The position numbers and the translations under genes are program-made. Shown here piece by piece: positions 12,911 through 38,895 of a DNA stretch of 64,000 nucleotides (position 1 is its first letter; the number at the start of each line of letters is the position of its first letter). The notes beneath the pieces are model-generated. The model was not told where the DNA came from and made no database searches. It worked only from the letters and a program-made list of their open reading frames with translations. Where the stretch lies: NCBI GenBank assembly GCA_036012755.1, contig DASCPX010000137.1, forward strand, positions 1-64,000. The letters are read 5' to 3'. The stretch comes from Myxococcota bacterium (lineage in GTDB: Bacteria > Myxococcota_A > UBA796 > CAJQPC01).

Positions 12911-13244
12911 GGAAGGCCTCGACGGAGTTCATCCAGCCGCGCACCTGCTCCGCCGAGGGGTGGAGCTCGTAGCCCTTGTGGTGGCAGGCCTGGCTCAGGG
13001 CGTTCCAGGTCCAGGCGATGGACCAGGCGTCCCCGAGGCCGTCCCCCCTCACACGGAGCGTGATCAGCTGGAGGGTGACCGTGCCCTTGCCAGCGCCCGG
13101 AACGAGCACCTCCACGCGCTCGCGCAGCTCCTGTTCCAGGGCCTGTCTCGTCAGCAGGCAGACCGCGCGGACCCAGGCGGGGCCGAGCTCGCCGTGGTCC
13201 TCGTAGATGCCCCACGCTGCGCTCAGGCGTTCGCTGGCTTGCAC
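12867..13244 (-). CDS. Small helical protein, possibly divergent HEPN-like, coupled to the Rad50-like ATPase
   Basis: GTG start overlapping the ATPase end; RAVCLLTRQALE ... WNALSQACHHKGYEL. Confidence 0.65.
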   Translation of the reverse strand: MQASERLSAAWGIYEDHGELGPAWVRAVCLLTRQALEQELRERVEVLVPGAGKGTVTLQLITLRVRGDGLGDAWSIAWTWNALSQACHHKGYELHPSAEQVRGWMNSVEAFLRAPTSSGTPCPSR

Positions 13245-15682: not shown

Positions 15683-15740
15683 GTCGCCACCAGGCTGCAG
15701 GTTCGATCACCAGAGCCCACTCCTGGTCCTTCTGGACAGC

Positions 15741-23230: not shown

Positions 23231-24225
23231 GCTGCATCCCGGGCGAGCTCCCGGACGAGCTTGCTGAGCTGGGGGTGGCTCTTCAGCAGCTGGGCGAGCA
23301 GGCCCAGGCGGCCCCGGCTCCGGAAGCGGGTCACGAGGTCGGCGACGAAGAGCTGGACCCACTCGGCGCCGGCTCGGGCGCTCAGCCAGCGGAAGGCCGC
23401 CAGGGCCTCTTCTTCGTCGGCGACGCGCAGGGCCAGCCCCACGCAGGTGGCGAAGCGCACGCTGAGCTCTTTGGGCCAGCCGATGTCCTCGCCGCGGCCT
23501 CGCAGGACGGGGGACAGGTCGGGCAGGCAGGCGACCGTGTCGAGGTAGACGCGGAACTCGTCCCCGGCGGCCTCGCCGACCGCACAGGAGACCTCGAGGG
23601 CGGCCTCGTGGAGGGTGCTGGCCATCTCCCAGGTCCGCGGCGACGGGAAGGCCGGCCGGTTGCGGTCGAGCTTGTAGAGCAGCTCGGGCCGGAAGGACAG
23701 GAAGGCGATGACGTCGGCGGAGAGCTCCTGACTCATCGCGTAGCGCTTCCAGCTGTCCAGATCGGGCTCGATCTCGACGTGGATGCAGCGGTTGGCGACC
23801 GGCGCCGGCATGGCATGCACGGCCGCGGCGTCTTCACGCCGGTTGGAGGCGCACCAGATGAACCAGCCATCTCCCAGGCGGTGTTCGCCGATGCGTCGGT
23901 CCAGGAGCAGCTCCTGGGCCAGGCCCTGCACGCTCGGCACTGCGTTGGCGAGCTCATCGAGGAAGAGCACACCAGCACCATCAGGCCGAAGGAACTCGGG
24001 CCGGGCGAAGCGGGCGATGCCGTCTGCGACGATGGGCAGACCTCTCAGATCGGTAGGCGCCAGCTGCCCGAGTCGCAGGTCGATGACCTCCAGCCCGTGG
24101 CTCTCTGCGACGGTCCGCACGATCGCGGACTTGCCGACGCCGGGGGGACCCCAGATGACGACGGGCAGCTCGATGCTCAGCTCGACCAGGGTGTCGAGGC
24201 GCTCTCGAAGTTCGTGGGGTCGCAT
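23227..24225 (-). CDS. MoxR-like AAA+ ATPase (DUF2201-associated type)
   Basis: WGPPGVGKS, DLRGLP, LFLDE, ASNR, ANR, FPSPRTWE. Confidence 0.92.
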   Translation of the reverse strand: MRPHELRERLDTLVELSIELPVVIWGPPGVGKSAIVRTVAESHGLEVIDLRLGQLAPTDLRGLPIVADGIARFARPEFLRPDGAGVLFLDELANAVPSVQGLAQELLLDRRIGEHRLGDGWFIWCASNRREDAAAVHAMPAPVANRCIHVEIEPDLDSWKRYAMSQELSADVIAFLSFRPELLYKLDRNRPAFPSPRTWEMASTLHEAALEVSCAVGEAAGDEFRVYLDTVACLPDLSPVLRGRGEDIGWPKELSVRFATCVGLALRVADEEEALAAFRWLSARAGAEWVQLFVADLVTRFRSRGRLGLLAQLLKSHPQLSKLVRELARDAA

Positions 24226-24278
24226 CCAGCTCCTCGGGCTTCGAGGAGGAGAGCGAGGCGGACTCCCTTACGGACAGC

Positions 24279-27200
24279 TCAGAAGGGGATGTCGTCGTCC
24301 GGGGTGGCGAGCTGTCGCTTCACCTCTGCGAGCTCGCCCACCTCCAGCGGCTCGAGGTCCCCGGTCTCGAGGCGTCGCTCGAGCTCCTGCATGGCGCTGC
24401 GGTCGTGCAGCGCCAGCTCCCGCAGCATGCCCTTCGCGGGCTCTCGACGTCGCGGGGGCCGGGCGTCGAGCCAGTGGATCACGGCGCCAAGTCGGGCGGA
24501 TGGACCGCCTAGCGTCCACATGTCTGCGGCGAGCCTGTCCGCCCTCTCGCCCTCTCCGCCCTCTGCGAGCTGGTGCAGCAGCCCCCGCGTAGTGCCGGCG
24601 CCGAGCTCTCTCCCGCTCCGCAAGAGATCCTCGAGGTAGTCCATGGCCACTGGCCGCAGCGCGGAGCAGTCGGGGGGCTCCAGCCCGAGGGCCCGCACGT
24701 CCAGCCACCAGGGCTCCTCCATCCGCCAGGTCGACCGCAGGAGGAAGTAGGGATCGAAGAGGGCGTCTCCGCCGAAGAGCAGCGCGACGGCGAAGTCCAG
24801 GGGGGAGTCGAAGAGGAAGGTGTAGGGCTCGGGATCGTCGAGTGCTTGGGGGTCGAGGATGGGCCATCGACGCTGTCGATCGGCGCCCGCGGCGGCCGAG
24901 AGCGGCATCGTCCCCACCGCGATGGACCGAGCCTCCTCCGGGTCGGCCGACAGGCCGGGGCAGCCAGCCGCCAGCCGCATGGCCAGAGCCCGGGCGATCC
25001 CGTCGTCGTTCTCTGCCAGGGCCCTCAGCCTCTCCGCCGCCTCTGGCCTGGGCTCCACGCCGAAGCCATGGAGCTGGCGGATGAGGAGGCGAGCGGCGAC
25101 CTCCTGGTCCTCCTCCGCGAGGTCCTCGAGCCACTCCACGGCCAGCTCCGGAGCTCCGGTGGGGAGTGTCTCGGTGACCCCGATCGCCGCCTGGTCCAGG
25201 ACCCGGTGAGCCCAGCGCTCCCGGGCCGAGGCCACCCCGGCGAGCCCGGCGAGGTGGAGCCAGTGGAGGATGCCGCGATCGTCCTCGATGTCTCCCCGGT
25301 CGTGGGCTCCGGCCAGGGCGGCGGAGGCGCTGGCCCTGCCTGCCTCGCTCGCTTGCAGCAAGAGCTCCTTGGTCTCCTCCGGACCGATCTCGCCGCACAC
25401 CGACAGGGCGTGCAGGCCGAGGGCCTCTGCGGCCTCTGCGTCTCCTTCGTCGATCGCCCGGCGGAGCCAGCGCTCCCCCTCCTCGACGTGGACGATGCGA
25501 CGCATCGGACCTACGCTCGAGCTCACGCCAGAGGTCTCGAGCCACCGGTTCGGGTGCTCGAAGGCCTCGTCGGGCTCCAGCCCTCCGGCGTGGAAACCAG
25601 CGGAGCGAAGCAGGGCAACCCCCAGCACCCGTGCGGCCGCCGGGTCGTCGACCGCTGCCTCGCGCGCGGCCTGCAGCACCTCGTCCGCTCGGACCCACTC
25701 GTCGAGGAGCTCCTCTGCGAACTGCACGACGGCGCCTGGTCCCTTGAGGGTGGGCTCCTCGTAGAACCAGGACTTCGAGGTCGTGCCGTCGATGCGCAGC
25801 AGGCCAGGCGAGAAGTGCGCGTAGAAGCACCGGCTCCGCAGGCTCACGGCGATGTGGTGCTTGTGGATCTTGACGTGCAGCAGGTGGAGCCGCCGTCGCT
25901 TGAGTACCGCCTGGCCCCGACCTCGGGCGCTCCAGGTGTCGGTGTCCTGGAGTCGGCCGTGGAGTCGCTCCTGGAGGAGTGACAACAGCGCCGGGCCGGT
26001 GGTCTCTCCGCTGGGATCGGGGAAGTCCCAGGCGATGATCTCCGGGTCGTCGCCAAAGTCGTCGATGTCTTTGCGCCAGCGCTCCAGCTCGTCGGGTACT
26101 CCGGCGCCGAGCTCGGGCAGGGCGTCCGGGAGATCGAAGGACCTCGAGTCGAAGAGGTACTCGTCGTCCAGGGCGATGGCGGATCCAGCAGGAGTGCCGC
26201 CGATGCGCTCGGTGAGCCAGGCGGGGGTGGGCACCGGGTCGTAGCCGCCGAGGACCTTCGCCAGGTAGGCGCCATGCAGGCCGTCCGGGGGCCGCCCCGC
26301 GATGTTCCGCGGCACCCTCTCGCGGTCGACCTCTTCCTCGCCGGGGAAGGGCCAGTGGTGGGCACAGTCGCGGCAGACCAGGTAGCGATGCAGGGTCGGC
26401 TCGTAGCGGATCTTCTGGGACTGGAAGGAGAGGCTCTTGCCAGCGACGGAGAACTCGGCCTCGTCGGTGGCCTCCTCCACGAGGAAGATGGAGGGCCCGC
26501 CCTCGACGAAGACCCGACCGGCGCTGACGCGGATGCCGTCACAGTCCGGGCAGCGCGCCCACTCCGGCGGCTCGATGCCGTTGAGTCGCGCCCGGACGAG
26601 GCCGACGAGGCTCAGGATCTCGAGCTGGTCGTCTTCGTGGGCCGCTTCGTCGAACCATGCCCTTGGGTCATCGAGCTCGCGGAGTCCATCGGAGCGCACC
26701 TCGTGAAGGCGTGGAGGGTCGCCCTGCACGAGCACCGCCGCGCGGATGTGGCGCCGGAGCCTCGGCCGAACCAGGGGCGCAGCCAGTGAGAGGGCGCGGC
26801 GGTGGACCGGAGCAAGCGGGATCTTGTGGGACAGCCCACGCTTGATGTCGAGGGCGACGACGCCCATGGTGGGGTGGAGCAGCACTGCGTCGAGCTCGAA
26901 GCGGTCACCGCCCAGGACCTCCCAGCCCTCGGGACAGACGGCGTCGATGTGCGCCAGGGCTTCGGGTCCCAGCCCAGAGGCCAGCAGCCTCATCTGCTGC
27001 TCGAACCACTGCCCCAGGACGCCGAGGTCCGCCGCGAAGACCAGCTCCATGGTGCGCAGGGCCGGACCGAAGAGCTGGCCGAGCACGTCACCGTGGTCGG
27101 GGTGCACCGGCAGGGGAGGAGGCGGGTTCATCTCCGGCGGGTCGGGCAGCCTGGCGTCCGGACGGCTGGCGGCTTGCCGTGCGCCGATGGCCAGGTGCTC

Positions 27201-28841
27201 GAAGGACTGCCAGGCGTCCAGGAAGCTCAGGTCATGGCGCTTCGCAGGCATGAGCGCGGGCTCGGACAACGCCGAGGCCAGCTGCGCTGCGACCTCGCGG
27301 ATGCGGTTGCTCCAAGACGACAGGGGCCTCCCCGGCAGCTGGTTGCGCAGGCTGAAGAGCCAGCGGTCGACGTCGTCGAATGGAGTGCGCGCGGGGGTCG
27401 TCGCCCGATGTCGAGCCGGTCGCAAGAGCTCCGGGTCGTAGTCCCAGCCCGCCGCGTCCAGCACGTTGCAGAGGGCGCTGAGAACCCCGGAGTCCCAGGC
27501 GGCGCCTCCCTCGTCGAGGCGGTCCTCGCGGATCCGGATGAGCAGGTCCACGGGGACGCGCAGGTCGCTGGGGAAGTCCTCGGCCTGGCCGGCCTCGATC
27601 ACCCACTCCAGGACCTCGGCGATGCGCTCCGGACGCAGGAAGGAGCGCAGGCTGGCCTTTGCATCCTCGTCGGCGAAGACCAGGAGCGGCTCCGGCCGAT
27701 CGCCGAGCTCCACCCGGCGCAGCATGCCCGAGGTGATGGCCTCTGCGATGTGGAGGCGGGTGAGTCGGGCTTCGCCGACCAGGCGGGTTCCCAGGGCAAC
27801 CAGCAGCGAGTGGTCGATGGCGGCGCCGGGCACAGAGGCGGCCAGGGCCAACAACTCCAGGGACTCCGGACTGGCCCCCCGAGCGAAGCGGTGGGCGTGC
27901 TCCACCCAGTCGAGGATCGGCTCTCGTTCTCTCCGCGGCCGCTCCCTCCGCGGCAGTCTCCGGGCCAGCAGGGAGCCTGCTCCACGACCGTGCGCCCAGG
28001 ACTCGAGCGGGCGAATGCCCTCTGGAGAGAGCTCCACCAGCGGCAGGCGAATCTCTGAGGGGTCGACCTGGCCGGGCCTGAGCCTGCCGAGGCGAAGTCG
28101 GTCGGCCGGGGTCCTTCGCCACGCCCCCCGGGTCCAGGGGTGGAGCCATGCGATGCGGGTGCCGGAGGGCAGCTCGGCCAGTGCCTGCGCCAGAGCGCCG
28201 CCTCGGATCACGTGGCTCACTCCATCGGAGACCAGCAACACGAGGTTGTCGAGCCCCGGACGCACCAGCCGCCGGAGCTCCAGCTCGCTCCCGCCACCGA
28301 TACGGCCACGGGAGACGCCGGCGAAGCTGCCGACCTCTTGGGCGAGCTCGACGACCCGGTCGCAGAGGTCCCGCCAGGGAGTCATCGAGGCGCTGCGGTC
28401 CTCGACGATGACGAGGTGGATCCCGGGCTCCCGTCTCGGCCGCAGCTCCAGGCGGATGTCGTCTGCGGCGGCGCTGGCCCTCACCGTCGCCTCGACGTCG
28501 AGCTCCTGGTGGCTCGGGCTCTCCCGGGTGCTCGCGAGTCGGTGGAGCCCTCGAGCCAGCGCTCTCCGGTCGCGCAGCGGCAGTGGCCTCGGCAGGGACA
28601 GGCGCAGTCGCTCGGCGCCGCCGCCCGGCGTGGTCTCCTCTGCGCCGATGCCTGCCTCTACCTGGCTCGTGGCGTCGGGCTCGGTCTTCGGGGCCCTTTG
28701 GCGGGGTGGAGAGGGCGACGTCCTGGCAGGCGGATCCTCGCAGAGGTCCTCTCGCGTGGGCTCGCTGGCGGAGGGCTCCACCGGTCCTCGCAAGCGACGC
28801 AGCCACAGGACCTCCGCGATCTCCCGGGGCGAGAGCGTCAC
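24279..28841 (-). CDS. SAV_2336-type vWA-like protein with NERD/PD-(D/E)xK-like, zinc-ribbon and Sel1-like regions
   Basis: EIAEVLWL, LDVEATV, EDRSASMTPW, LLVSDGVS, HPW..AWRRT; ELDAVLLHPTMGVVALDIK; CPDC/CRDC; Sel1-like helices; C-terminus DDDIPF. Confidence 0.82.
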   Translation of the reverse strand: MTLSPREIAEVLWLRRLRGPVEPSASEPTREDLCEDPPARTSPSPPRQRAPKTEPDATSQVEAGIGAEETTPGGGAERLRLSLPRPLPLRDRRALARGLHRLASTRESPSHQELDVEATVRASAAADDIRLELRPRREPGIHLVIVEDRSASMTPWRDLCDRVVELAQEVGSFAGVSRGRIGGGSELELRRLVRPGLDNLVLLVSDGVSHVIRGGALAQALAELPSGTRIAWLHPWTRGAWRRTPADRLRLGRLRPGQVDPSEIRLPLVELSPEGIRPLESWAHGRGAGSLLARRLPRRERPRREREPILDWVEHAHRFARGASPESLELLALAASVPGAAIDHSLLVALGTRLVGEARLTRLHIAEAITSGMLRRVELGDRPEPLLVFADEDAKASLRSFLRPERIAEVLEWVIEAGQAEDFPSDLRVPVDLLIRIREDRLDEGGAAWDSGVLSALCNVLDAAGWDYDPELLRPARHRATTPARTPFDDVDRWLFSLRNQLPGRPLSSWSNRIREVAAQLASALSEPALMPAKRHDLSFLDAWQSFEHLAIGARQAASRPDARLPDPPEMNPPPPLPVHPDHGDVLGQLFGPALRTMELVFAADLGVLGQWFEQQMRLLASGLGPEALAHIDAVCPEGWEVLGGDRFELDAVLLHPTMGVVALDIKRGLSHKIPLAPVHRRALSLAAPLVRPRLRRHIRAAVLVQGDPPRLHEVRSDGLRELDDPRAWFDEAAHEDDQLEILSLVGLVRARLNGIEPPEWARCPDCDGIRVSAGRVFVEGGPSIFLVEEATDEAEFSVAGKSLSFQSQKIRYEPTLHRYLVCRDCAHHWPFPGEEEVDRERVPRNIAGRPPDGLHGAYLAKVLGGYDPVPTPAWLTERIGGTPAGSAIALDDEYLFDSRSFDLPDALPELGAGVPDELERWRKDIDDFGDDPEIIAWDFPDPSGETTGPALLSLLQERLHGRLQDTDTWSARGRGQAVLKRRRLHLLHVKIHKHHIAVSLRSRCFYAHFSPGLLRIDGTTSKSWFYEEPTLKGPGAVVQFAEELLDEWVRADEVLQAAREAAVDDPAAARVLGVALLRSAGFHAGGLEPDEAFEHPNRWLETSGVSSSVGPMRRIVHVEEGERWLRRAIDEGDAEAAEALGLHALSVCGEIGPEETKELLLQASEAGRASASAALAGAHDRGDIEDDRGILHWLHLAGLAGVASARERWAHRVLDQAAIGVTETLPTGAPELAVEWLEDLAEEDQEVAARLLIRQLHGFGVEPRPEAAERLRALAENDDGIARALAMRLAAGCPGLSADPEEARSIAVGTMPLSAAAGADRQRRWPILDPQALDDPEPYTFLFDSPLDFAVALLFGGDALFDPYFLLRSTWRMEEPWWLDVRALGLEPPDCSALRPVAMDYLEDLLRSGRELGAGTTRGLLHQLAEGGEGERADRLAADMWTLGGPSARLGAVIHWLDARPPRRREPAKGMLRELALHDRSAMQELERRLETGDLEPLEVGELAEVKRQLATPDDDIPF

Positions 28842-29803
28842 CTCCGGTCGCGCTTCAGGCTCTGCATCGCGTCCTCGACCGGCGCCCCGTGGCCCGCGTT
28901 CAGGAAGAGGGCCTGAAGGAAGACGTCGGTGGCCTGGTCCGGGTGCTCGTGAAGTAGCGAGGCGATCTCCTCTTCGGAGACCACGTCGCCGAGCTGCTGC
29001 TGCACGATGCGGTGGAGGTGGGCGCCGGTGGGTCGGCGCAGCTCGAGCTGGACGCAGCGACGCAGGAAGGCCGGCGGGAACTCCCGCTCCTTGTTCGAGG
29101 TGATGACCACCACGGGGTGGTGGTGGGTCCGCACCCGCCCACCGGAGATCGGCACCCGATCCGACTCTCCGCCACAGTCGCTGGGCCAGACGAGCTCGGT
29201 GCCGTCGGAGCGCGCCAGCTCGTCGACGCGGAAGGCCCCCTCTTCGAAGACGTGGAGCAGGTCATTGGGCAGGTCGTAGCTGGACTTGTCGAGCTCGTCG
29301 ACGAGCAGCACGCGCGGCTCGGCTGTCGGCAGGAGCGCCGTTCCGAGGGGGCCCAGGTGGATGAAGTCAGCGATCCCGGATTCGCCCTGTTCCTTGATGG
29401 CGCGGAGGTGATCGACGGCGTCGTAGCTGTAGAGCCCGTCTGCCAGCGTCGTGCGCGAGTTGATCTCCCAGCGCAGCACGGCCCCGAGGCGGAGCACGTG
29501 TGCCAGGTGGTAGGCCAGGGAGGACTTGCCGATGCCCGGGTCGCCGGTCACCAGCAGCGGTCGGCGCACCAACAGCGCGATGTTGATGCGGTCGGCTTCG
29601 TCGGGCCCCTCCTCCCCCTCCTGGCGGAAGAGCGAAGACGACACGTAGTTGCGTCCCCGTTGTTCATGGGGTTTCGGCGCTGGGACCTCTCGTTCGACGT
29701 TTGGCACCGCCTGTGGGCATCGCCACGGCGGAGCCTTCTTCAGCCAGCGCTGCCGACTCTCGTCGGACACCGGGTTTCGAGGGTCGTAGATCCTCCAGCT
29801 CAT
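28838..29803 (-). CDS. MoxR AAA+ ATPase of the vWA-MoxR-VMAP ternary type
   Basis: MSWRIY start, RRPLLVTGDPGIGKSS, LGPLGTALLP, LLVDELDKS.DLPNDLL, ITSN.EREFP.AFLRRC. Confidence 0.92.
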   Translation of the reverse strand: MSWRIYDPRNPVSDESRQRWLKKAPPWRCPQAVPNVEREVPAPKPHEQRGRNYVSSSLFRQEGEEGPDEADRINIALLVRRPLLVTGDPGIGKSSLAYHLAHVLRLGAVLRWEINSRTTLADGLYSYDAVDHLRAIKEQGESGIADFIHLGPLGTALLPTAEPRVLLVDELDKSSYDLPNDLLHVFEEGAFRVDELARSDGTELVWPSDCGGESDRVPISGGRVRTHHHPVVVITSNKEREFPPAFLRRCVQLELRRPTGAHLHRIVQQQLGDVVSEEEIASLLHEHPDQATDVFLQALFLNAGHGAPVEDAMQSLKRDRR

Positions 29804-31278
29804 CACAACTCCACGGCTTCCCAGGGGATGTAGGTGCGGTCGTCCCAGGCAGCGGTCACGCGTGTTGTCGCGTTGTTCCGGATGCGAGTGACCGCGTCGA
29901 AGATCTCTCCGAGGGGGCGGGCGTCTCGCCCTTCGAAGAGGGCCTCGTGGCCGCCCTCGCCCAGGATGAAGGTCGCCACGCAGCCCTCTGCGCGCTCCAG
30001 CAGTGCGCAGATCTCCTCCGGACAGCCCGCGGCGGAAGGAAGGGCGATGACACACTTGATGTCGGGATCCGGCCCGGCGGCGCGAGCCTCGTCGAGGCAG
30101 GTGACCACGCGGACGTTGGCGTCCGGCGCTGGGGGCAGGATGGCCGGCTTGCGGAGCTCCGTGCGCTCCGGCTCTTCCTCCGGAACGGGCTGCACGACCA
30201 GGCAGCGGAAGTAGGTCCCCAAGACCCGGTCCCTGTGGGAGTAGGTCTCATAGGGCGTCGCAGCCTCCTCGCTCGCCACGCTCAGCTGCAGCACGTAGTC
30301 CACGCGGGGGGCCGCCCTGAGCCGGTTGGCCACCTTCTTCGCCAGGGCGATGTAGTCCCTGGGCTCACGCAGCGGTCTGTCGAAGACGAGGCTCTCCAGG
30401 CCATCCGCTTCGTGTTCCGGCCACAGGACCTTCGCCGAGTGGAAGAGCACATCGTCCCCGTCGTGGTCGAGGCGCAACCACACGGTCCGGATGCGCCTGG
30501 CGTGGCCACGGCCCGAGCGGCGGTTGACCGCCAGCCACTGGCGCAGATCTTCGGCGAGGGCGCCCTCCGAGAGATCGTGGAGCTGACTGGCAAGCTCCAG
30601 CAGGTGCCCCTGACCGGCCTGCCGGCGCTTGGCGAAGCCCTTGGCGACGAACTCGAGGGCCTGCTTGTCGCTCTTGTGGGCCAGGAACTCCATGCCCCGG
30701 TCGCCTGCGAGCACCCGCCCGGCGAGGGCCTCCAGGGCTTCTCTGCCGGCTCCCAGGGCGCGCGCATCCACCCTCGAGATCAGGGTCGTCGCCATCAGCA
30801 GCGACCGGTCGCTCTTCTGGGTGTGTTCGAAGACCGAGACGAAGTCCGCTCCGAGCAGCTCCGCGGTCGTCCGGAACGCTCCGCTGCAGATCCGCAGCAT
30901 CTCCTCGATCTCTTCGTAGGTGATCCGGAGCTCGTTGGGGTGGGCGGCGGTGTGTCGGATCCCGTACGCCGTCTGCCAGTAGGTGAGGGTCGGGGGCAGC
31001 GGCCTGCCCTCGTTCCGCGCCCAGTTGACGAGGGACTCGAAGGTCCCCGCCGTCGGCGCCCCGAGGTGTTCGCAGAGTGCGTCGTAGAGGTCCTCTGCGA
31101 ACTTGCCGATCTCCACCGCCGCGTAGCCGGGATGGCCAGCGTTCTGGCATCGCTCAGAGAGCGCGGGCAGCAGGGCGTCGACCATCTCCGGGGGGCCCTC
31201 GACGAGCTTCGGAGGGTAGCAGACGCTCGCAGCGGGGTTCAGCGCCAGGAGGTGGTAGCGAGTCGGTGCTGTTCGCAT
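29803..31278 (-). CDS. VMAP-like protein with putative N-terminal HEPN-like domain
   Basis: Directly upstream of MoxR; C-terminal AAWDD..YIP resembles VMAP-C ends; N-terminal RHTAAH (Rx4H). Confidence 0.7.
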   Translation of the reverse strand: MRTAPTRYHLLALNPAASVCYPPKLVEGPPEMVDALLPALSERCQNAGHPGYAAVEIGKFAEDLYDALCEHLGAPTAGTFESLVNWARNEGRPLPPTLTYWQTAYGIRHTAAHPNELRITYEEIEEMLRICSGAFRTTAELLGADFVSVFEHTQKSDRSLLMATTLISRVDARALGAGREALEALAGRVLAGDRGMEFLAHKSDKQALEFVAKGFAKRRQAGQGHLLELASQLHDLSEGALAEDLRQWLAVNRRSGRGHARRIRTVWLRLDHDGDDVLFHSAKVLWPEHEADGLESLVFDRPLREPRDYIALAKKVANRLRAAPRVDYVLQLSVASEEAATPYETYSHRDRVLGTYFRCLVVQPVPEEEPERTELRKPAILPPAPDANVRVVTCLDEARAAGPDPDIKCVIALPSAAGCPEEICALLERAEGCVATFILGEGGHEALFEGRDARPLGEIFDAVTRIRNNATTRVTAAWDDRTYIPWEAVEL

Positions 31279-31279
31279 G

Positions 31280-31993
31280 TCATCGGAGAGCCCCCTCCGT
31301 GAGCCTCCGGACAGTCCAGGCCCTGACGCCGAGCTCGTCGACGAGGAAGCTCCGGTAGTGAGGGGGCTGGCGCTCCGCGAGGGTGGTCATGACCTGGTAC
31401 AGCCGGGTCCCTCGTGGGTGGCTCGCCAGCACATGAGCCAGCGCGATCTGCACCAGGGCCTCCTCGCTGCGCTTGCCCGCGGCTCCGGTGCTCGCGACCC
31501 CGTGGGCAGCGTGGAGGAGCTCGTGCATCCAGACGAGCTCCGCGACATCGGCGAGCTCCCACTGCTCGGGCAGATCGATCGACAGCTCCCAGATCTGCTC
31601 CAACCGAGCGGGACAGAGCGCGACCACGGGGGCCCCGGCGAAGGGTGGGAGCTCGGGGAAGTGGTGCTGCAGGCCGGCGGTCCGCCCCAGCCGAGTGAAG
31701 ACCCCTGCCGCCGCGAAGCGCCGCAGATCGGGCAGGAGTTCCCTGAGCACGTTGTCCCGCTCCAGGGGGTCGATCGGGAGGTCCATCTCGCCCGAGGCCA
31801 TGAGCCGAGGCGGGTAGAGCCGGTCCATGAGCTGCTCGTCGACCAGCCAGGTGACGGGGAAGGGGCGAGGCAGCAGGTGGCGCTCGCAGAGGACCTCACG
31901 GAGCTCCGGCGAGCGCTTGTCGAGCTCGGTGACGAGGTGCGCGGCGAGGGCGTCTCCACGCAGCGAAGCCTGGGTGATCATCAGACCCACCAC
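31280..31993 (-). CDS. Putative zincin-like metallopeptidase
   Basis: HELLH (HExxH) followed by SEEALVQ. Exact start uncertain. Confidence 0.65.
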   Translation of the reverse strand: MVGLMITQASLRGDALAAHLVTELDKRSPELREVLCERHLLPRPFPVTWLVDEQLMDRLYPPRLMASGEMDLPIDPLERDNVLRELLPDLRRFAAAGVFTRLGRTAGLQHHFPELPPFAGAPVVALCPARLEQIWELSIDLPEQWELADVAELVWMHELLHAAHGVASTGAAGKRSEEALVQIALAHVLASHPRGTRLYQVMTTLAERQPPHYRSFLVDELGVRAWTVRRLTEGALR

Positions 31994-32748
31994 GGCCTCC
32001 GTCGGTTGGGGTCCTCGCGCTTGCCGGTGAGCCAGGGGAGGTCCTCGGTCGTCAGCGGGGGCAGGTCGCCGAACCAGGGCATGCCGGGGACCTCGGCTCG
32101 CGAGTCCAGGTCGTAGTAGCGAAGGCGCAGGTTCTTTGCGATGTTCCAGGCGAGGTCGTTGCGCCGGATCAGCTCGGCGAGCTCCTCGTCGACGTCGTCG
32201 TAGTACTGACCCCAGGACCCCTCCTCACGGAGCTCCGGCAACAGATCGGCTGCCTCGTGGGTCACGGCTCTGCACTCGTTGCGCAGGCGGATGACCTCTG
32301 CGAGCTCCTCGATGTCGTCCTCGGGCACGAGCGGAAGGACCCAGGGGCGCTCCTCGGCGACCGACACCAGCTCCTGGGTGCGGCCACGGATGTTCCTCTC
32401 GGTGAGCTGGTGGTGGAGCAGGCCCACGAGCTCGTCGGGGTCGAGCAGGCCCTCGAGGGTCTCTGTCTGCAGCAGCTCCTCCCACCTCCTCCCAGAGTCC
32501 TGGAGTCGATGGAGGATCCTCCTGCGCTCCGCATCGTCGGTCCAGCGGGTCAGCGCCGAGCGAGCAACGGCCAGGCTCTGGCGCACGTAGCTGCGTTCTC
32601 TGAGTACACCCCAGAGGGCCGCGCTTCGCCGAAGTCCGGGCCGGCCGTAGGCGAACCAGCACCAGCGCTTGCGAAGGCTCGCGAGCTCTCCGAGGTCCGC
32701 CAGGGCCAGGCCGAGCTGGTGCTCGTGCTTGCGCGTCAGTCGCGCCAT
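31981..32748 (-). CDS. Hypothetical helical protein
   Basis: AGGAGG upstream of ATG at 32748; overlaps both neighbours. Confidence 0.7.
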   Translation of the reverse strand: MARLTRKHEHQLGLALADLGELASLRKRWCWFAYGRPGLRRSAALWGVLRERSYVRQSLAVARSALTRWTDDAERRRILHRLQDSGRRWEELLQTETLEGLLDPDELVGLLHHQLTERNIRGRTQELVSVAEERPWVLPLVPEDDIEELAEVIRLRNECRAVTHEAADLLPELREEGSWGQYYDDVDEELAELIRRNDLAWNIAKNLRLRYYDLDSRAEVPGMPWFGDLPPLTTEDLPWLTGKREDPNRRRPWWV

Positions 32749-33749
32749 GTGTCCTCCTGGTGGTAGACCTCGACGCCGGGCTCGGGGTGTCGTCCCAGCC
32801 ACTTCGCGAAGTCGTCGATGGCGGCGGTCACTGCGAGGGGGTTGTAGGTGCGGCGGCGCTCATCGGCCTCGAGCCGCTTCTCCAGGGCTCCCACCCCCTG
32901 GACGGGGCGGTAGCAGGTCCGGAGCTGGAAGAGGCGTCGCTTCTCCGGTGACAGGGACAGGGTGACGCCGTCGTCGTCGATGTAGCACTCGTTCTGGAGG
33001 CGACCGCGGGATCGCAACGAGTAGACGCAGTGTCGAGGTCGGAGCCCGGCTTGTTCCGCGGCTCGCCAGATCCGGTCTTCGTAGGCGGCGATGACAGCTG
33101 TCCCCGCCAGGCGGGCCTCGATGTGATCGAGCCAGCCTTCGATCCAGAGGCCGCGAGGTGGACTCTGCATGAAGCGGAAGGCCCTGCCCAGGGAGCGCCT
33201 CGCCGACTGGGACAGGCTGCGGTCGATCCAGGCGCAGAGTTCCATGAAGCGGGGGTCAGCAGCGGCCTCCTCGGTCAGGGCTCGGTCGCGGCGCAGAGCC
33301 TCTCGCACGTGCTCCCAGAGCCCTTCCCGGCAGAGCAGTCGCGCTCGCCTGCGCGCGGCCTTCGGCAGGCCAGCGGTGTTCCCCAGGATGTGCAAGCGCG
33401 CGTCATCGTTGGGGGATTCGTCCAGGAAGGCCAGGGTCACGTCGTCGAGGTCCAGCGGATGGCGGGCCAGCAGGACCTGGTGCGTGAAGAGCAGCTCGGG
33501 CTGTTGGCTGAGGGCCACGGCGCGCTCGTGGGCCTCCAGCACGTCTTGTGTGCAGGAGGTCCAGGTTCGCATCGTGTCGACCCAGCTCCGATCCAGCGTC
33601 GGCAGGTTCATCTCCAGGACCTCGCCCCAGTCCTCGCTGTCGCGCAGGACGTGCTTCAAGACGTGTCCCAGGAGCGCGGACCGGGGCATGGGCTGGACGT
33701 GGCGGAGGCTCAGCCGACCATCAGCCGTGCGACGGGGGAAGTCCTTCAC
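32736..33749 (-). CDS. Hypothetical protein, candidate toxin RNase
   Basis: GTGA overlap with the upstream gene; HVLKH near the N-terminus and LRTCYRP near the C-terminus. Confidence 0.65.
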   Translation of the reverse strand: MKDFPRRTADGRLSLRHVQPMPRSALLGHVLKHVLRDSEDWGEVLEMNLPTLDRSWVDTMRTWTSCTQDVLEAHERAVALSQQPELLFTHQVLLARHPLDLDDVTLAFLDESPNDDARLHILGNTAGLPKAARRRARLLCREGLWEHVREALRRDRALTEEAAADPRFMELCAWIDRSLSQSARRSLGRAFRFMQSPPRGLWIEGWLDHIEARLAGTAVIAAYEDRIWRAAEQAGLRPRHCVYSLRSRGRLQNECYIDDDGVTLSLSPEKRRLFQLRTCYRPVQGVGALEKRLEADERRRTYNPLAVTAAIDDFAKWLGRHPEPGVEVYHQEDTWRD

Positions 33750-34273
33750 GAGGCTCCCCACCAGGCACCCTCTGCCTTCTTCGCGGCGAGGAGTCGTGGA
33801 TGTTCCAGGTCGAAACGCCGGGCCTGCAGTCGTCGGTCGAGGTCGTGGAAGCATGGAGCCGAGGCGCCGACATTGCGCAGCGCCACCGCCAGGCTCTCGA
33901 GCTCGTCTCGGCGCAGCAGGGCAGCGGGGTCCTCTGTATCCAGGGCCTCGGCTCGCTCGCCCACCTCGGCCACGAGGGCCGCGCGTTGCCGCTGGTCGAG
34001 GCGAGCCCACCAGTCGACGAGCTCGTTTCGCGAGGGCATGCCCTGGCCGGCGAGGAGTTGTCGCAGGCGGTCTCGGCGGCCCTCGGGGCTGGTCGCCCTG
34101 TCGAAGCGCTCGGCATGGCCCAGGGCCAGCAGGCCTCCGACCATGGTGCCTTCGGATAAAGCGACCTCGAGCTCGGCGTTGAGCCAGGTGGGAGCGTCCG
34201 GACAGAGCAGGTCCGGCCCGCGGAGTCCATTGGGCTCGGCGGGCTGGGAGTGCAGGCGGTCTATGTCAGTCAT
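33746..34273 (-). CDS. Hypothetical protein, candidate anti-sigma partner
   Basis: Overlaps the sigma-like gene; helical, RRDELES ... WW. Function inferred from position only. Confidence 0.65.
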   Translation of the reverse strand: MTDIDRLHSQPAEPNGLRGPDLLCPDAPTWLNAELEVALSEGTMVGGLLALGHAERFDRATSPEGRRDRLRQLLAGQGMPSRNELVDWWARLDQRQRAALVAEVGERAEALDTEDPAALLRRDELESLAVALRNVGASAPCFHDLDRRLQARRFDLEHPRLLAAKKAEGAWWGAS

Positions 34274-35438
34274 TTCGGGTCTCCAGTACCCCGGCGACCA
34301 CGGCGTGGACCGTGTCGACCGGGTCTTCGTCTTCCTGCACGGACCGAGCCCGGAACCTGGTGTGGAGGAGGTAGGTGGCCAGCAGGCGCCAGGCCTGCTC
34401 TGCGTCGCGGTCCATGACGCGCTCTCGCCAGCTCGCCAGCACGGGCACCAGCTCTGCGCCTCCGGCGATCGCGAGCACGATCCGAGCTGCTTCGGTCCAG
34501 CGGAAGCCTCGTCGGACCAGCTCCAGCAGCAGGCTGGAGGGTGCCTCGACCAGGGGGGCCATGAGCAGCTCGATGGCGCTCTCCCGTGCCCGGCGGTCCG
34601 TGCGGTTCAGCGGGTCTCCCCGGCGCACGCGCTCGGAGAGGGCGGAGAGGGCTCTCCACTGACCCCTGGCCCGGGGGCGGGTCTTGGCAGCCTCTCGGAG
34701 GAAGGGGCCGATCAGCCAGGTCTCCACTGCGTCCTCGAGCGTGGTCGAGCCGAGGCTCGCCAGGATCTCCAGCTGCGCGCGCTCGTTCCAGCGGGCCTCG
34801 AGCTCTGAGTCGGGAGAGGAGGACGATGAGCAGGTCATGGCCTCCTCGCGCTCGCGGTCGGTGTGGTCCCGGGCGGCGATCTCCAGCGAGCCGGGGCCCG
34901 ACATCCTGTCGGTCAGCTGCTCGCTTCCGCCGCCCTTGGCTCGCCAGGCTCGGCTGAGCTCCTTCTGGATCGCGGTCCGGTAGTAGGACCGCAGGCGACC
35001 CGGGGTCGCTCCGTTGTGTCCGTGGCTGGTGGGGCAGCCCGGCACGCCGTCGAGGTAGCACGACGTCAGCAGCGCCTCGTGCGGCTCGCTGTCGTGGACG
35101 CAGGCCAGCACGTCGTCCAGGGGCACCTGGCGCAGTCCAGCGGAGGCCACGTCCTCGAGCACCTTGTCGCTCGGCCAGGCTTCTCCTTCCTTCGGCGTGG
35201 CGTTGGCCAGGCGGCCCAGGACCATCTGGCGCGTTCGGAAGAGGTTCAGCTGCGCCGTCTGGACGGCGTCCTCGAGGTCCACCCCCATGCTGATCGCTTC
35301 CGCCTTCAGCGAGGCTCCCAGCCTGCGGAACTCCGTGTCGATCGTCGCCCACGCTCCCAGGCGGTCGCGGCGGGCGTCGAAGTCGGGCTTCGACACCTCT
35401 CGCAGAGCGGTGACGAGGTCCAGGGTGGTTGCGTTCAA
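34266..35438 (-). CDS. Divergent ECF sigma-70-like protein
   Basis: GGAGGTG RBS plus TTG; region-2-like DLEDAVQTAQLNLF and LRSYYRTAIQKELSRAWR, separated by an insertion. Confidence 0.6.
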   Translation of the reverse strand: MNATTLDLVTALREVSKPDFDARRDRLGAWATIDTEFRRLGASLKAEAISMGVDLEDAVQTAQLNLFRTRQMVLGRLANATPKEGEAWPSDKVLEDVASAGLRQVPLDDVLACVHDSEPHEALLTSCYLDGVPGCPTSHGHNGATPGRLRSYYRTAIQKELSRAWRAKGGGSEQLTDRMSGPGSLEIAARDHTDREREEAMTCSSSSSPDSELEARWNERAQLEILASLGSTTLEDAVETWLIGPFLREAAKTRPRARGQWRALSALSERVRRGDPLNRTDRRARESAIELLMAPLVEAPSSLLLELVRRGFRWTEAARIVLAIAGGAELVPVLASWRERVMDRDAEQAWRLLATYLLHTRFRARSVQEDEDPVDTVHAVVAGVLETRND

Positions 35439-35464
35439 GACACCTCCGAGAGGGATGAGGGGAG

Positions 35465-35500
35465 CCCTTCGTCCACCGGACAGTTCGTGGGGACGAAGGG
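35465..35500. promoter_or_regulatory. Hairpin in the 5' leader of the sigma-like gene
   Basis: CCCTTCGTCC (35465-35474) pairs with GGACGAAGGG (35491-35500). Confidence 0.5.
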
Positions 35501-35532
35501 GGAGGCGTGACCTCCGACCTCTCAGGGGGTGT

Positions 35533-35564
35533 GGGCTCCAGGATCCGGATGAAAAAAACTGGAC
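35533..35564 (-). promoter_or_regulatory. Conserved upstream motif A (candidate ECF promoter)
   Basis: 27/32 identical to 37966..37997; intergenic; ~100 nt upstream of the 35438 start. Confidence 0.7.
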
Positions 35565-35581
35565 TCAGCTGTGAACCCGCC

Positions 35582-37675
35582 TCAGTAGCCGATCTGTGAG
35601 GCCATCTCGGACAGGCCGTCGGCCTCGGACTCGACCGCCTCGATCCAGGCGGCGAGGACCTCGTCGATCCTGGTTGCGAATGACGGCAGGTCCCCTCGGT
35701 AGCGCCGCGCTGCCTGGAGGAAGCCCTTCTTCTTCTTCGGGCGGCGACCCAGCAGCAGGTCCGCTCGTGGATGGTGGGCCGCGACCTCCAGCCACGCGGC
35801 GAGGCCCACGAGCTCGAGCACGGTCGTGCTCGGGAGCTTCAAGAGGGCCGTGAGCGTGCGCTCCGCAGCCGCGGGGTCTCCGGTCTCGGCCTGCAGCGCC
35901 GCCAGCTGCCGGCGGATGCCATGGGCCGGGTAGCCGAGCCCGGCCTCTGTGACCCAGGAGTCCCCGGCGCAGCGAAGGCCGAGGGGGTCCCTGGCGATGC
36001 GGGTCAGGCGCAGGAAGTGCAGCAGCGCGAAGCCCCGGGGAAAGCCTGGCAGTCCCTCGATGTGGTCCAGGATCATCTCCCGGGTCGCGGTGGGCTCCAT
36101 GCCGATGCCTCGAGCCAACCAGGCTCCGGCCTCGTCGAGGTTTCCGGCCCAGGTCTCGAGCTGGGCCCGGTACTGGCACTGGCGCTGGATCTGCGTCGGC
36201 TCGCCGAACTCGGAGAGCGCCTGCTCGGAGAGCGCCCGGGCCTTCTCGAAGCGCGAGGGGTCCCGCAGGCCAGCGTACATCTCGGCCTGCAGCTGGGTCC
36301 CCAGGGCCTTCGCCCGCTGGGCGGAGTGCTGCACGACTCCCTCGACGAGATCCGCTGCGAAGGCGGCGAGTCCCTCGTGGTGGGCCTGGAGGTTGGACAT
36401 CGCCGTCGACGCCACGTCGTGCTCCAGGCAGTCCGTGTGGTGAACGGCCTTGGCGACCAGGGCCTCGCTCACGAGCTCGAGGTGCTCCTGCCGAGCCAGG
36501 ACCGAGGGCAACAGCGCCTCCACGCGGTGGACGTGGCCCCGTGCGTCCTCGAGGCGGCCGTCGTGGTTCGCCGCCGTCAGGCGCCAGCGGCACAGTGCCA
36601 GCTCGAAGGCTGGAAGGCTCGGGCCCTCGACCCGCCCTTGGAGGCCCTCGACCAGGGTCCGACTCAGCCAGGTGGCGACTCGCTCTCCGACCACCAGGTC
36701 CCGTTGGGTCTCGATGATCGTGTCGAGCCAGTGCTCGAGCTGCTGGAGCTGCACGGCCCTGGCGGGTCCGCCCATCTGTGCGAGTCGCGCCAGGGCAGGC
36801 TCGATTCGTCTTTGCGCTGCCCTGCGGAAGCCCTCGGTCGTGCTCTCGGCCACGAGCATCGGCGTGAGGAGCTGCAGCGCTCGGGCGACGGCCCCATCGG
36901 CCAGGGCCTCGTCGGCCTGCTCCACGAGCGGTCGCACCTCCAGGCTCCAGTCGGTCTCGCCGAAGGCCCTGCGCAGGGCCTCCTCTGCCCTGGGCTGTAA
37001 GGGGGAGAAGTCGTCGTGGCTGCCGTGGCTCAGGAAGTCGGCCAGCTGTAGGCCCCGGTCCTTCACAGAGCGGAGCTGCACGCGAACCGACCAGCCAGCG
37101 GCCTCTTCCGCCAGTCCGCGTCGGATTGCCGTGAAGCCCAGGTGCTCCCGCACTCGGCGCTGGAAGTCCTCTTCCTTCATCAGCTCGGGGATGTCGAGCT
37201 CCTCGTCGACGGTTCCGATGCGCACGTTCCCGCAGATCACTCGCAGCTCGACGCGCTCGGCTCCCTTGCGCCGGTGGTGATCCAGCAGGCGCACGACGAG
37301 CTCGGCGACGGCGTTGGTCTGGTTGGCGACCCGGTCTCCCCAGCTCACTCCTTCCAGGTTCGCCAGCCGCACCGCTCTCCAGCCTCGCACCTCCAGGGCC
37401 GCCTCCAGCTTCGGGAACGCGGCCTGGTAGCGGCCAGGATCCTTCTGCTTGAGGTCCACGGCGTGCGCGATCGCCGGGAGCTGGCCGCCGAGGATCTGTC
37501 GGAGCACCTGCTCGGCGTCGCGCTTGAGCTCGCCTGCCGGGGCGCAGACCCCCGCCAGCTGCGAGGGAAAGCGCCGCCGGGACAGATCGGCGCTCAGCTT
37601 TTCTCGAGGTTCCGTCGAGGTCTCTGAGAACTGTCCGCTCTCGTCGAGGAACAGCTCCAGCTTCAAGACGGCCAC
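35582..37675 (-). CDS. DUF3800-like (RNase H-fold) domain fused to a TPR-like helical region
   Basis: N-terminal LFLDESG and later LQLADFLSH; helical-repeat C-terminal two-thirds. Start uncertain (GTG 37675 chosen). Confidence 0.72.
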   Translation of the reverse strand: MAVLKLELFLDESGQFSETSTEPREKLSADLSRRRFPSQLAGVCAPAGELKRDAEQVLRQILGGQLPAIAHAVDLKQKDPGRYQAAFPKLEAALEVRGWRAVRLANLEGVSWGDRVANQTNAVAELVVRLLDHHRRKGAERVELRVICGNVRIGTVDEELDIPELMKEEDFQRRVREHLGFTAIRRGLAEEAAGWSVRVQLRSVKDRGLQLADFLSHGSHDDFSPLQPRAEEALRRAFGETDWSLEVRPLVEQADEALADGAVARALQLLTPMLVAESTTEGFRRAAQRRIEPALARLAQMGGPARAVQLQQLEHWLDTIIETQRDLVVGERVATWLSRTLVEGLQGRVEGPSLPAFELALCRWRLTAANHDGRLEDARGHVHRVEALLPSVLARQEHLELVSEALVAKAVHHTDCLEHDVASTAMSNLQAHHEGLAAFAADLVEGVVQHSAQRAKALGTQLQAEMYAGLRDPSRFEKARALSEQALSEFGEPTQIQRQCQYRAQLETWAGNLDEAGAWLARGIGMEPTATREMILDHIEGLPGFPRGFALLHFLRLTRIARDPLGLRCAGDSWVTEAGLGYPAHGIRRQLAALQAETGDPAAAERTLTALLKLPSTTVLELVGLAAWLEVAAHHPRADLLLGRRPKKKKGFLQAARRYRGDLPSFATRIDEVLAAWIEAVESEADGLSEMASQIGY

Positions 37676-37704
37676 GGGGTGGAGACTACCGCCCCGCCCT
37701 TCGC

Positions 37705-37902
37705 TCAGGGGTTCACGTCGATGTCGAAACATCCGGGCTGCTCCGGGCACTCGTCCCAGTTCTCCGTGTCCCCGTGGAGGGGGCGGAGGGCGCCGAGGAT
37801 GACTCCGTCCTCTTCCATGGCTCGCGCGGCCTCGACCAGGTCCAGCTGGCGGTAGCCGTTGGCGCGGTTGAGGCGGAGCACGATCTTGGATTCGAGGTCC
37901 AT
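37705..37902 (-). CDS. Small protein (65 aa)
   Basis: AAGGAGA RBS just upstream of ATG; first gene downstream of motif B. Confidence 0.7.
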   Translation of the reverse strand: MDLESKIVLRLNRANGYRQLDLVEAARAMEEDGVILGALRPLHGDTENWDECPEQPGCFDIDVNP

Positions 37903-37965
37903 GTCTTCTCCTTTTGGGTGTGTCGGCAGCGGCCCATCCGTTGCTTCCACCCTTTCTGGAGGAGC

Positions 37966-37997
37966 GGGCTCCGGGATCCGGACAAAGAAATCTGGAC
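37966..37997 (-). promoter_or_regulatory. Conserved upstream motif B (candidate ECF promoter)
   Basis: Repeat of motif A, in the divergent intergenic region. Confidence 0.7.
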
Positions 37998-38018
37998 GAC
38001 CCGTGTTTTCATTGGCCG

Positions 38019-38843
38019 GTGCCTGTCGATCTGGCCACGCTCGCGCCGCTGTTGCGGGGGACCTATGGGGGTCGAGATGCGGCCGCGGCGGTGATCTGGG
38101 AGCACGGCCTCCCCACGATCCAGCGCATCGCGAGGAGGCTGCACCAGAAGAGCCCTGGTTTCTTCTCGCGGCATGTCGGCAACGCCGAGGCCCTGGGCAT
38201 GGAAGCGGTGTCGGAGCTCATCCGCCGGGCCGAGGAGGAGCAGGGCCTGCCGCTCGACAACAACTGGGCTCGCGGCGACAGCTACCTCGCGCGCGCGACC
38301 CTGGACACCATCCGGGCCCTCGCGAAGCGGTACCGCCTCCAGGAAAAGCGGGAGTCCAGCGCGGCTGGCGAGCCCGAGCTCGAGCTCGACCGACCCTGGT
38401 TCGACCGCGTGGGCACGCACGATCGGTTGCGGTCGAGGCTGCACACCGACGAGCCCTTGAGCCGGGACCGGGCCCTGGGCCTGCTGGTCGAGGTCCTTGC
38501 CGCAGTGAAGGGCTTCAAGGCCCTGGCATACCTGCTGGACCGCTTCCCCCCTGGCGTGGATCGCCCCCTGGTCTCGCGGGCCTCGTCGGACTCCACCGCC
38601 ACCCGGGGCCTGGCCCGCCCGGAGCCCGAGACCTGGGAGCTCCTGGTGGACTGGCGCGAGCGCCATGGGCGGCTCACCGTCTTCGCCGCAAACCGAGGTG
38701 TCGCCTGGGTCCTTCGCACATCCGATCAGACGAACGCCGAGACCTTCTACCTCAAGCACCGGGCGGCCATGACCACCGCCATGGACGCGGTCCTGTGCTG
38801 GCGCAGGGACGTCGAGGCCCGGCTTGGGGAGGCGCTGTCGTGA
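38019..38843 (+). CDS. Divergent ECF sigma-70-like protein
   Basis: Region-2-like IQRIARRL..NAEALGMEAVSELI..SYLARATLDTIRALAKRYR; degenerate region-4-like ETFYLKHRAAM. Start uncertain. Confidence 0.55.
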   Translation: MPVDLATLAPLLRGTYGGRDAAAAVIWEHGLPTIQRIARRLHQKSPGFFSRHVGNAEALGMEAVSELIRRAEEEQGLPLDNNWARGDSYLARATLDTIRALAKRYRLQEKRESSAAGEPELELDRPWFDRVGTHDRLRSRLHTDEPLSRDRALGLLVEVLAAVKGFKALAYLLDRFPPGVDRPLVSRASSDSTATRGLARPEPETWELLVDWRERHGRLTVFAANRGVAWVLRTSDQTNAETFYLKHRAAMTTAMDAVLCWRRDVEARLGEALS

Positions 38844-38876
38844 TCTTCTGTCCGGATTCGCCGGCTCGGTGCTCCT
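38842..38876 (+). promoter_or_regulatory. Conserved upstream motif C (candidate ECF promoter)
   Basis: CTTCTGTCCGGAT-N14-CTCC, followed by AGGAGG and ATG at 38896. Confidence 0.55.
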
Positions 38877-38895
38877 ACGTCACCAGGAGGCTCCG

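Follow-up and report, generated by a model that had tools for sequence, protein, structure and literature searches.

Genes and recurring sites of the island

The DNA analysed here, called the window, is a 64,000-nucleotide (nt) stretch of contig DASCPX010000137.1 from a Myxococcota bacterium (assembly GCA_036012755.1). It contains a 28-kb defence island in which three coupled plus-strand genes are predicted to encode a sigma factor (sigma 1) resembling those of extracytoplasmic function (ECF), a putative anti-sigma factor and a Lon-type protease domain with TPR-like helices (Lon-TPR), and in which further gene blocks lie on the minus strand (Table 1). The subject of this analysis is a short bipartite site, (C/T)TGTCCG followed after 17 nt by CTC, that recurs across the island.

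Table 1. Features of the island in window coordinates (aa, amino acids).
Feature	Coordinates	Strand	Basis or position
Two BrxD-like ATPases, BrxHI-like helicase, SMC/LmuB-like ATPase	13223..20319	-	Profile matches
Site G (9/10), CTGTCCA-N17-CTCT	15712..15738	-	Directly after helicase stop, 29 nt before SMC-like ATPase ATG
AAA ATPase and DUF2201 metallopeptidase-vWA	22127..24225	-	Profile matches
Site F, CTGTCCG-N17-CTCT	24250..24276	-	Directly after vWA stop, 24 nt before AAA ATPase ATG
491-aa orphan, MoxR-type AAA, SAV_2336-type vWA protein	24279..31278	-	Profile matches
Four orphan genes (175, 337, about 256 and 237 aa)	31280..34273	-	Open reading frames
Site E, CTGTCCG-N17-CTCT	31287..31313	-	8 nt before ATG of 491-aa gene heading MoxR/vWA block
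Second sigma-like gene, 390 aa, orphan, weak sigma status	34266..35438	-	Sequence
Site C, CTGTCCG-N17-CTCA	35456..35482	-	17 nt before TTG of second sigma-like gene, ribosome-binding site GGAGGT between
Copy 1, degenerate CATCCG-N17-CCCC, duplicate of site B region	35525..35564	-	Sequence comparison
Terminator-like hairpin and T tract, directly after DESG-TPR stop, overlapping copy 1	35553..35578	-	Hairpin at 35578-35561
DESG-TPR gene: DESG...QLxD N domain and TPR-like repeats, about 700 aa, start approximate	35582..37690	-	Homolog alignment
Site D (uncertain), CTGTCCG-N17-CTCC	37632..37658	+	Antisense within DESG-TPR gene, aimed at sigma 1 about 360 nt away
65-aa acidic orphan gene	37705..37902	-	Open reading frame
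Site B (second copy), TGTCCG-N17-CTCC	37958..37984	-	55 nt before 65-aa gene / DESG-TPR gene
Sigma factor 1, 274 aa, sigma2 and sigma4 with insertions	38019..38843	+	Structure model, homologs
Site A (third copy), TGTCCG-N17-CTCC	38849..38875	+	6 nt past sigma 1 stop, 20 nt before putative anti-sigma start
Putative anti-sigma, 320 aa	38896..39858	+	Family match E=8e-14; function inferred
Lon-type protease domain and TPR-like helices, 522 aa	39855..41423	+	Profile searches

The site was first noticed, in an earlier note on this DNA, as a repeat at 35533-35564 and 37966-37997. The two copies are identical at 27 of 32 positions in a single register only, the third core described there, TGTCCGGAT, is present at 38849-38857 on the plus strand, and all three copies read TCCGGAT-N14-CYCC toward their downstream gene. 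As a 32-mer, the pair is unmatched in the 6.73-Mb genome, where copy 1 has a next-best ungapped match of 24/32 and copy 2 one of 23/32, but the 11-base pattern TCCGGAT-N14-CYCC is not rare, with 16 genome sites of which 3 fall in these 3.3 kb. The signal is bipartite, as the note had claimed; the part conserved in the sigma family, however, is (C/T)TGTCCG-N17-second box and not TCCGGAT. By this definition copies 2 and 3 are exact, whereas copy 1 reads CATCCG...CCCC and is the poorest site. The three units originally named also understate the extent of the set: the copies in the note include two of six exact sites, and the four exact sites and one 9/10 site that were overlooked would make the regulon wider.

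Exact matches to YTGTCCG-N17-CTC occur six times at 12.9–41.5 kb, compared to 0.46 expected. Five of these sites stand 8–55 nt ahead of the start codon of the first gene in a block; the sixth is antisense in the DESG-TPR gene. The blocks directly behind exact sites are the anti-sigma/Lon pair, the presumably RNase H-like DESG-TPR gene, the second sigma-like gene, the MoxR-vWA genes and the AAA-DUF2201 genes. With relaxed matching, 7 of 12 matches on the 194-kb contig lie within 15.7–38.9 kb; no sigma70 consensus promoter was found at 35350-41600. Site C is 69 nt nearer the 390-aa gene than copy 1. Site D is an uncertain candidate for an autoregulatory promoter of sigma 1, and sites upstream of the sigma gene also occur in three related loci (L128, L129 and L131; L numbers denote related loci throughout). 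Site E lies so close to its ATG that a nearly leaderless mRNA is expected, and the TGTCCA hexamer of site G is also found in L124. A strong GC hairpin at 35460-35500 overlaps site C in the leader of the 390-aa gene and could affect promoter access or read-through.

A motif that accompanies a sigma family

The flanks of related sigma loci carry TGTCCG, 17 free bases and then CGTC or CGTA. Across 14,028 flanking bases from 23 loci, spacer 17 yields 9 exact occurrences, and no other spacer between 10 and 25 yields more than 3. In 10 of 17 related loci, an exact TGTCCG-N17-CGT[CA] stood no more than 250 nt ahead of the anti gene, matching the position of site A, and in 12 of 17 a match of 9/10 or better did; the remaining spacers from 14 to 20 gave exact matches in 2, 0, 0, 0, 0 and 0 of the 17, and 7 of 157 other called genes of those loci have a site. 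L051 was omitted from this count because its coordinate was the Lon start, and the Lon loci L014, L019, L023, L025 and L027, with no recognisable anti start, were not counted. The five loci without a match of 9/10 or better include L128, L129 and L131, which carry an exact site 150–280 nt before the sigma gene instead. Placement is constant across three kinds of DNA: intergenic stretches, the sigma gene's 3' end, and the coding sequence of gene X, a gene found between sigma and anti genes in some loci. The exact site falls within gene X in five loci and within the sigma 3' end in one, and the hexamer inside gene X uses the minority Cys codon TGT in 5/5 exact cases (TGT makes up 11–43% of Cys codons there). 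TGTCCG occurs in 22 of 24 listed family sites. Genome-wide, the family pattern was found 7–12 times in five relatives compared to 4–13 times for a reversed control, suggesting that the regulon is local; in the genome studied here, the CGT form showed no excess at spacer 17.

The structure model of sigma 1 (predicted local distance difference test score 76.8) aligns over residues 6-117 to sigma2 and over 143-274 to sigma4 structures with Z of 5–7, as in the comparisons with sigma2 of 5uxx (Z 6.9, root-mean-square deviation 3.3, 83 aligned) and sigma4 of 2h27 (Z 6.3, root-mean-square deviation 1.8, 64 aligned). Named sigma entries fill 13 of the first 14 rows of the fold search. The protein has only the sigma2 and sigma4 domains and is longer than a usual ECF sigma through insertions. 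Its best relative scored E=3.7e-5 (23.4 bits) against TIGR02937, below the cut-off of 42.9. Homologs are present in 19 of 153 other genomes of the order and in 15 of 400 genomes drawn from the phylum. From the model, 38019-38843 likely encodes an ECF-like sigma of an undescribed family.

The proposal that the copies are -35/-10 elements used by an island sigma, which would induce effectors and be subject to feedback through the anti-sigma, is backed by comparison of related loci, in which the hexamer, the 17-nt spacer and the placement before the anti-sigma gene all recur, together with the sigma2 and sigma4 fold and a predicted Lon Ser-Lys dyad. On these sequence data the repeat is very probably the promoter of a sigma. 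Since this hexamer and spacer accompany the 274-aa family in loci where the 390-aa gene is absent, we consider sigma 1 to be its probable reader.

A sigma subfamily without anti/Lon neighbours aims TGTCCGGATTC-type sites at a conserved gene of 145-165 aa (L126:8327-8821, L145:9359-9853, L130:1999-2439, and L127:534-1016 and 5839-6261), which is possibly an alternative anti-sigma or an effector; L127 has two paralogs with a site before each. The divergent sites of L126, L145, L130 and L127 lie at the position equivalent to site B, and the L126/L145 site has 18 identical bases in common with site A. Among other loci, L132:1132-4937 has two tandem sigma-family genes ahead of the anti-like gene, L130 has a second, apparently broken sigma copy, and a stretch of about 55 bp is directly repeated at L129:8840-9000, in the leader upstream of the sigma gene.

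A changed second box

By its position, site A is orthologous to the family site, with CTCC standing exactly where CGTC stands elsewhere. When triplets 17 nt past TGTCCG were counted with no box preset, CGT was the commonest in 25 related loci (29/237; next 10), and CTC was the commonest in this island (6/21), compared to a genome background for CTC of 170/5439. No CGT-type site was found at 31–41.5 kb. One column of sigma region 2.4 holds Asp in 21 of 24 relatives and Ala in sigma 1 of the window. The column aligns with an Asp of M. tuberculosis SigE, and we take it to be the equivalent of Asn84 of E. coli RpoE. Substitutions at the Asn84-equivalent position alter -13/-12 base specificity (PMC7776599, a source available in part). 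The alignments suggest that the change from CGT to CTC likely went together with the change from Asp to Ala in sigma 1.

Competing explanations for the sites

Copies 1 and 2 remain alike over 27 further downstream bases (17/27, P about 2.5e-4) and match at 9 of 30 bases upstream; this downstream-only likeness suggests that a segment of about 60 bp was duplicated. In copy 1, the T run doubles as the tail of a terminator-like hairpin, for which the evidence is modest, as 4 such hairpins were seen in the region and 1.5 were expected. Copy 1 may be a relic, with a better site at 35482. An explanation built on this history would make the whole 27/32 repeat a scar of duplication or of insertion of a cassette holding the 65-aa and DESG-TPR genes, with the other sites due to chance or decay and the CTC boxes being dead CGT boxes. 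In its favour, the two copies share spacer and downstream bases and flank an independently mobile gene, and 0 of 42 DESG-TPR homolog loci examined carry a site. Decay, however, would not produce an identical CTC at six sites whose spacers share nothing else, and site A is positionally orthologous to family sites. A duplication or insertion scar probably explains copy 1, and we consider it unlikely to explain the set.

The 390-aa second sigma-like protein might instead read the CTC sites, sigma 1 having lost its targets or its activity here. The change from CGT to CTC is found in the only locus with the 390-aa gene, two candidate sites precede that gene, sigma 1 diverges in region 2.4, and CGT-type sites have gone from the region around it. 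Against this, TGTCCG with its 17-nt spacer is a trait of the sigma 1 family, seen in loci that lack any homolog of the 390-aa gene, and the 390-aa protein shows no family link to sigma 1 (E=1.1). Its sigma status comes from a weak lead in the Atlas, where 31% of a nearby cluster has Sigma70_r2; no homolog was found in 153 other genomes of the order, and a protein database gave only self-like matches. A 390-aa reader is therefore distinctly improbable.

It is very improbable that the island sites are half-sites of a host DNA-damage regulator that would place the island under host control: a palindrome with the same hexamer, CGGWCAG-N3-CTGWCCG, precedes recA, ssb and recC, is present in 5/5 relatives searched, and at ssb and recC also has CTC 17 nt downstream, but the left half of the palindrome matches the four island sites tested at 1–3 of 7 bases and 24 family sites at 0–4 of 7, TAnnnT follows 10 nt downstream at recA, ssb and recC but in 0 of 31 sigma-type sites, and the family motif follows the sigma gene across families with a fixed second box. 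The host palindrome with TAnnnT is itself a candidate site of a PafBC/WYL-type DNA-damage activator. In genome G000 the palindrome lies at C149:32839 (recA), C18:582 (ssb), C31:12054 (recC), C19:26930, C176:1207, C18:30536 and C85:30537, and two WYL genes are present in this genome. LexA was considered as its reader and rejected, as the palindrome is not in the lexA upstream region.

Several observations weigh against sigma-specific promoters read by sigma 1. The related loci are kin (L006/L007/L020, L123/L124 and L126/L145 are close), so that counts across them are not independent; they nonetheless span several branches of the sigma tree. L146 and L148 carry sigma and anti-like genes but no site, and the sigma homologs of L125-L127, L130 and L145 have no anti or Lon gene in the flanking DNA retrieved. 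Sigma 1 of the window has no Pfam or NCBIfam match, and no sigma row of its fold search attained Z 8. The 320-aa protein resembles no known anti-sigma by profile, and a PDB profile search with it gave only designed TPR proteins. The CTC pattern was picked after the sites had been seen, so P=9e-6 is optimistic, and spacer 15 gave 3 matches compared to 0.16 expected, all within genes. Site D is inside a gene, and site E allows no room for a leader. The link between residue and box depends on one genome; L021 (Ser) and L129 (Thr) lack the Asp yet have CGTC sites, which makes that link suggestive only. Taking both sides together, we think it fairly likely that the island's own ECF-like sigma turns on most gene blocks of the defence island together, through (C/T)TGTCCG-17 nt-CTC promoters.

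A proposed protease-gated switch

Related loci usually have the order sigma, optional gene X, 300-aa gene, Lon-TPR. In the model of the 320-aa protein, a low-confidence linker joins a helical N domain to a beta C domain; fold searches with it returned nothing at E<=0.001 (best Z 6.3). Its position, its fusion to Lon in some loci and analogy suggest that it is an anti-sigma. A ten-sequence profile of the 522-aa family matched Lon catalytic domains in PDB (best E=5.6e-6), and its C part matched TPR proteins. The predicted Ser-Lys dyad, S122 and K166, is invariant in 10/10 family members, and the 522-aa protein gave no match to an ATPase (AAA) module or SAVED and none at all in Pfam. Among 153 other genomes of the order, 12 have a homolog, as do 0 of 21 genomes of the bacterium's own family. 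The conserved module of sigma, putative anti-sigma and Lon-TPR likewise occurs in 12 of those 153.

The anti-sigma-like and Lon-TPR genes are fused into one polypeptide in L128:5608-8592 and L129:10476-13139, the latter from a single-contig genome (G430). Gene X, of about 185 aa, stands between the sigma and anti genes in L006:1013-1588, L007:9372-9947, L008, L020, L021, L122, L128 and L129. It has conserved SHxxKH and TAYRP-like motifs, which we take to be typical of BECR-fold RNases, and no Pfam, NCBIfam or PADLOC match. Ser/Thr kinase genes follow the Lon-TPR gene in L006:4648-6276, L007:12771-14987 and L021:18000-20000.

In the mechanism we propose, the 320-aa protein would hold sigma 1 at rest. 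A signal sensed by the TPR part would activate the ATP-independent Lon domain, which would cut the 320-aa protein and free sigma 1. Free sigma 1 would then transcribe the RNase-H-like TPR gene, the second sigma-like block, the MoxR-vWA block and the AAA-DUF2201 block, and possibly the SMC-like gene from site G. Because site A follows the sigma 1 stop, transcription from it would yield anti-sigma and protease without extra sigma, resetting the switch. We lean slightly toward release of sigma by protease and anti-sigma.

For the nine island proteins at 31280-41423, Pfam, NCBIfam and PADLOC gave no name, apart from a weak TPR match. The DESG and QLxD motifs are invariant in an alignment of DESG-TPR homologs, and from these motifs we assume that the N domain is RNase H-like. 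Homologs occur in many phyla, in surroundings rich in defence genes, and the neighbours scanned include Csm6-HEPN, restriction, GmrSD, Cas_NE0113, MukBE and kinase genes. The 42 homolog loci without a site are those left from 48 gene-called among 66 retrieved, after omission of one identical record and five without a parsed start; their lack of a site suggests that the DESG-TPR gene was recruited under this promoter here. In L051, a DESG-TPR gene stands directly after the Lon-TPR homolog. The 65-aa gene has no homolog in the related loci retrieved, save an identical record (L070). The 337-aa gene (32736-33749) is weakly like gene X (E=0.0017 among 15 proteins) and has no homolog in 181 other genomes of the class. 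The 175-aa gene was considered as a second anti-sigma, which a profile built without it did not support (E=0.088). A BrxD-BrxD-BrxHI-like trio with a 264-aa gene at 15741-21106, with no Pgl genes in the part scanned, may form a module related to BREX or similar to SngBC. Close to the island's right end, an open reading frame at 43750-44523 with an LLPHELHVLV motif has no Pfam match; we take its look to be that of a REP-associated tyrosine transposase.

More tentatively, and rather against our expectation, the locus could be a CRISPR-independent immune switch in which a TPR-gated, ATP-independent Lon frees a sigma of an unclassified family, a portable master regulator that recruits nearby defence genes by short promoters; one sigma residue change would have re-keyed this island from CGT to CTC, and the sigma would start a second sigma-like tier and might reach host ssb and recC. 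Protease/anti-sigma/sigma relays in immunity are known from CRISPR-linked systems. The locus family offers a compact putative relay of three genes, with no Cas gene among the island proteins scanned; its promoter is defined, its target blocks can be named, and one member is a natural variant in specificity. In E. coli it would allow direct tests of sigma specificity, of feedback and of what triggers the Lon-TPR protease. It would also bring MoxR-vWA, DUF2201 and BREX-like genes and an uncharacterised TPR gene with an RNase H-like reading into a single inducible programme.

Comparison with known systems

The papers cited in this section are available in part, and the comparisons extend to those parts. 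ECF41 sigmas act on local targets only, from the promoter TGTCACA-n16-CGTC (PMC3426412), and the geometry TGTCxx-N17-CGTC equals that of the family motif. They differ in a fused C-terminal SnoaL-like regulatory domain, COE genes and a TGTCAC hexamer in place of TGTCCG; here sigma4 extends to the C terminus of sigma 1, and the neighbours are anti/Lon. PafBC promoters, tGTCgg(N10)tA(N3)T (PMC8635444), have a similar hexamer and a layout that fits the host recA, ssb and recC sites, whereas island and family sites lack TAnnnT at N10 (0/31).

Closer likenesses lie with sigma systems of immunity. In Myxococcus xanthus, DdvS has four GTAAn16CGT promoters within a defence island, found by a motif scan of the island (PMC6061681, PMC11506125), and, as proposed for our locus, one ECF sigma drives several promoters that lie only within a defence island. 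Its anti-sigma DdvA sits in the membrane and has a TPR-CHAT domain in the periplasm, and the DdvS island holds CBASS and type III-B CRISPR. The window has instead a separate Lon-TPR protein, another -35 box (TGTCCG-N17-CGT/CTC for the motif as a whole) and MoxR-vWA, BREX-like and RNase-H-like cargo, and the 320-aa protein has no CHAT match.

CalpL-CalpT-CalpS (bioRxiv 10.1101/2024.05.08.593097) likewise places a stand-alone Lon domain, an anti-sigma and an ECF-like sigma in three adjacent genes, and a Lon domain with a Ser-Lys dyad and no AAA module is found here too. CalpL senses cA4 via SAVED and serves type III CRISPR, whereas TPR-like helices take the place of SAVED in our locus. A genome-wide SAVED search was blank, as was its positive control; no Cas10 was found among the island proteins scanned, and TIGR02577, one Cas10 model, was blank in the 96% complete genome. 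The 320-aa protein gave no profile match to solved CalpT and no fold-search result above background.

The type III-E system Csx29-Csx30-CASP-sigma resembles our locus in combining a TPR-bearing protease with a two-domain anti-sigma that has a flexible linker, three sigma motifs inside the locus and a fourth small conserved gene, Csx31 (PMC10028731), comparable to gene X in at least six related loci. The model of the 320-aa protein has the layout of Csx30. Csx29 is a cysteine protease of CHAT type, activated through RNA binding by Cas7-11 (PMC10028731), whereas the protease here is of Lon type, and no CHAT or Cas7-11 match was found among the island proteins scanned.

A search of largely open-access literature, ECF classification supplements not covered, found only CRISPR-linked and DdvS systems and no description of the sigma/anti/Lon-TPR module; the available parts of PMC12839542 and PMC8103513 hold nothing on it. 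Compared to CalpS, CASP-sigma and DdvS, the locus has Lon-TPR in place of SAVED-Lon or TPR-CHAT, lacks a membrane anti-sigma, shows no Cas genes among the scanned island proteins and has a different motif. The sites are likely the sigma-specific promoter set of an undescribed protease-linked sigma family that shares its logic with DdvS, CASP-sigma and CalpS.

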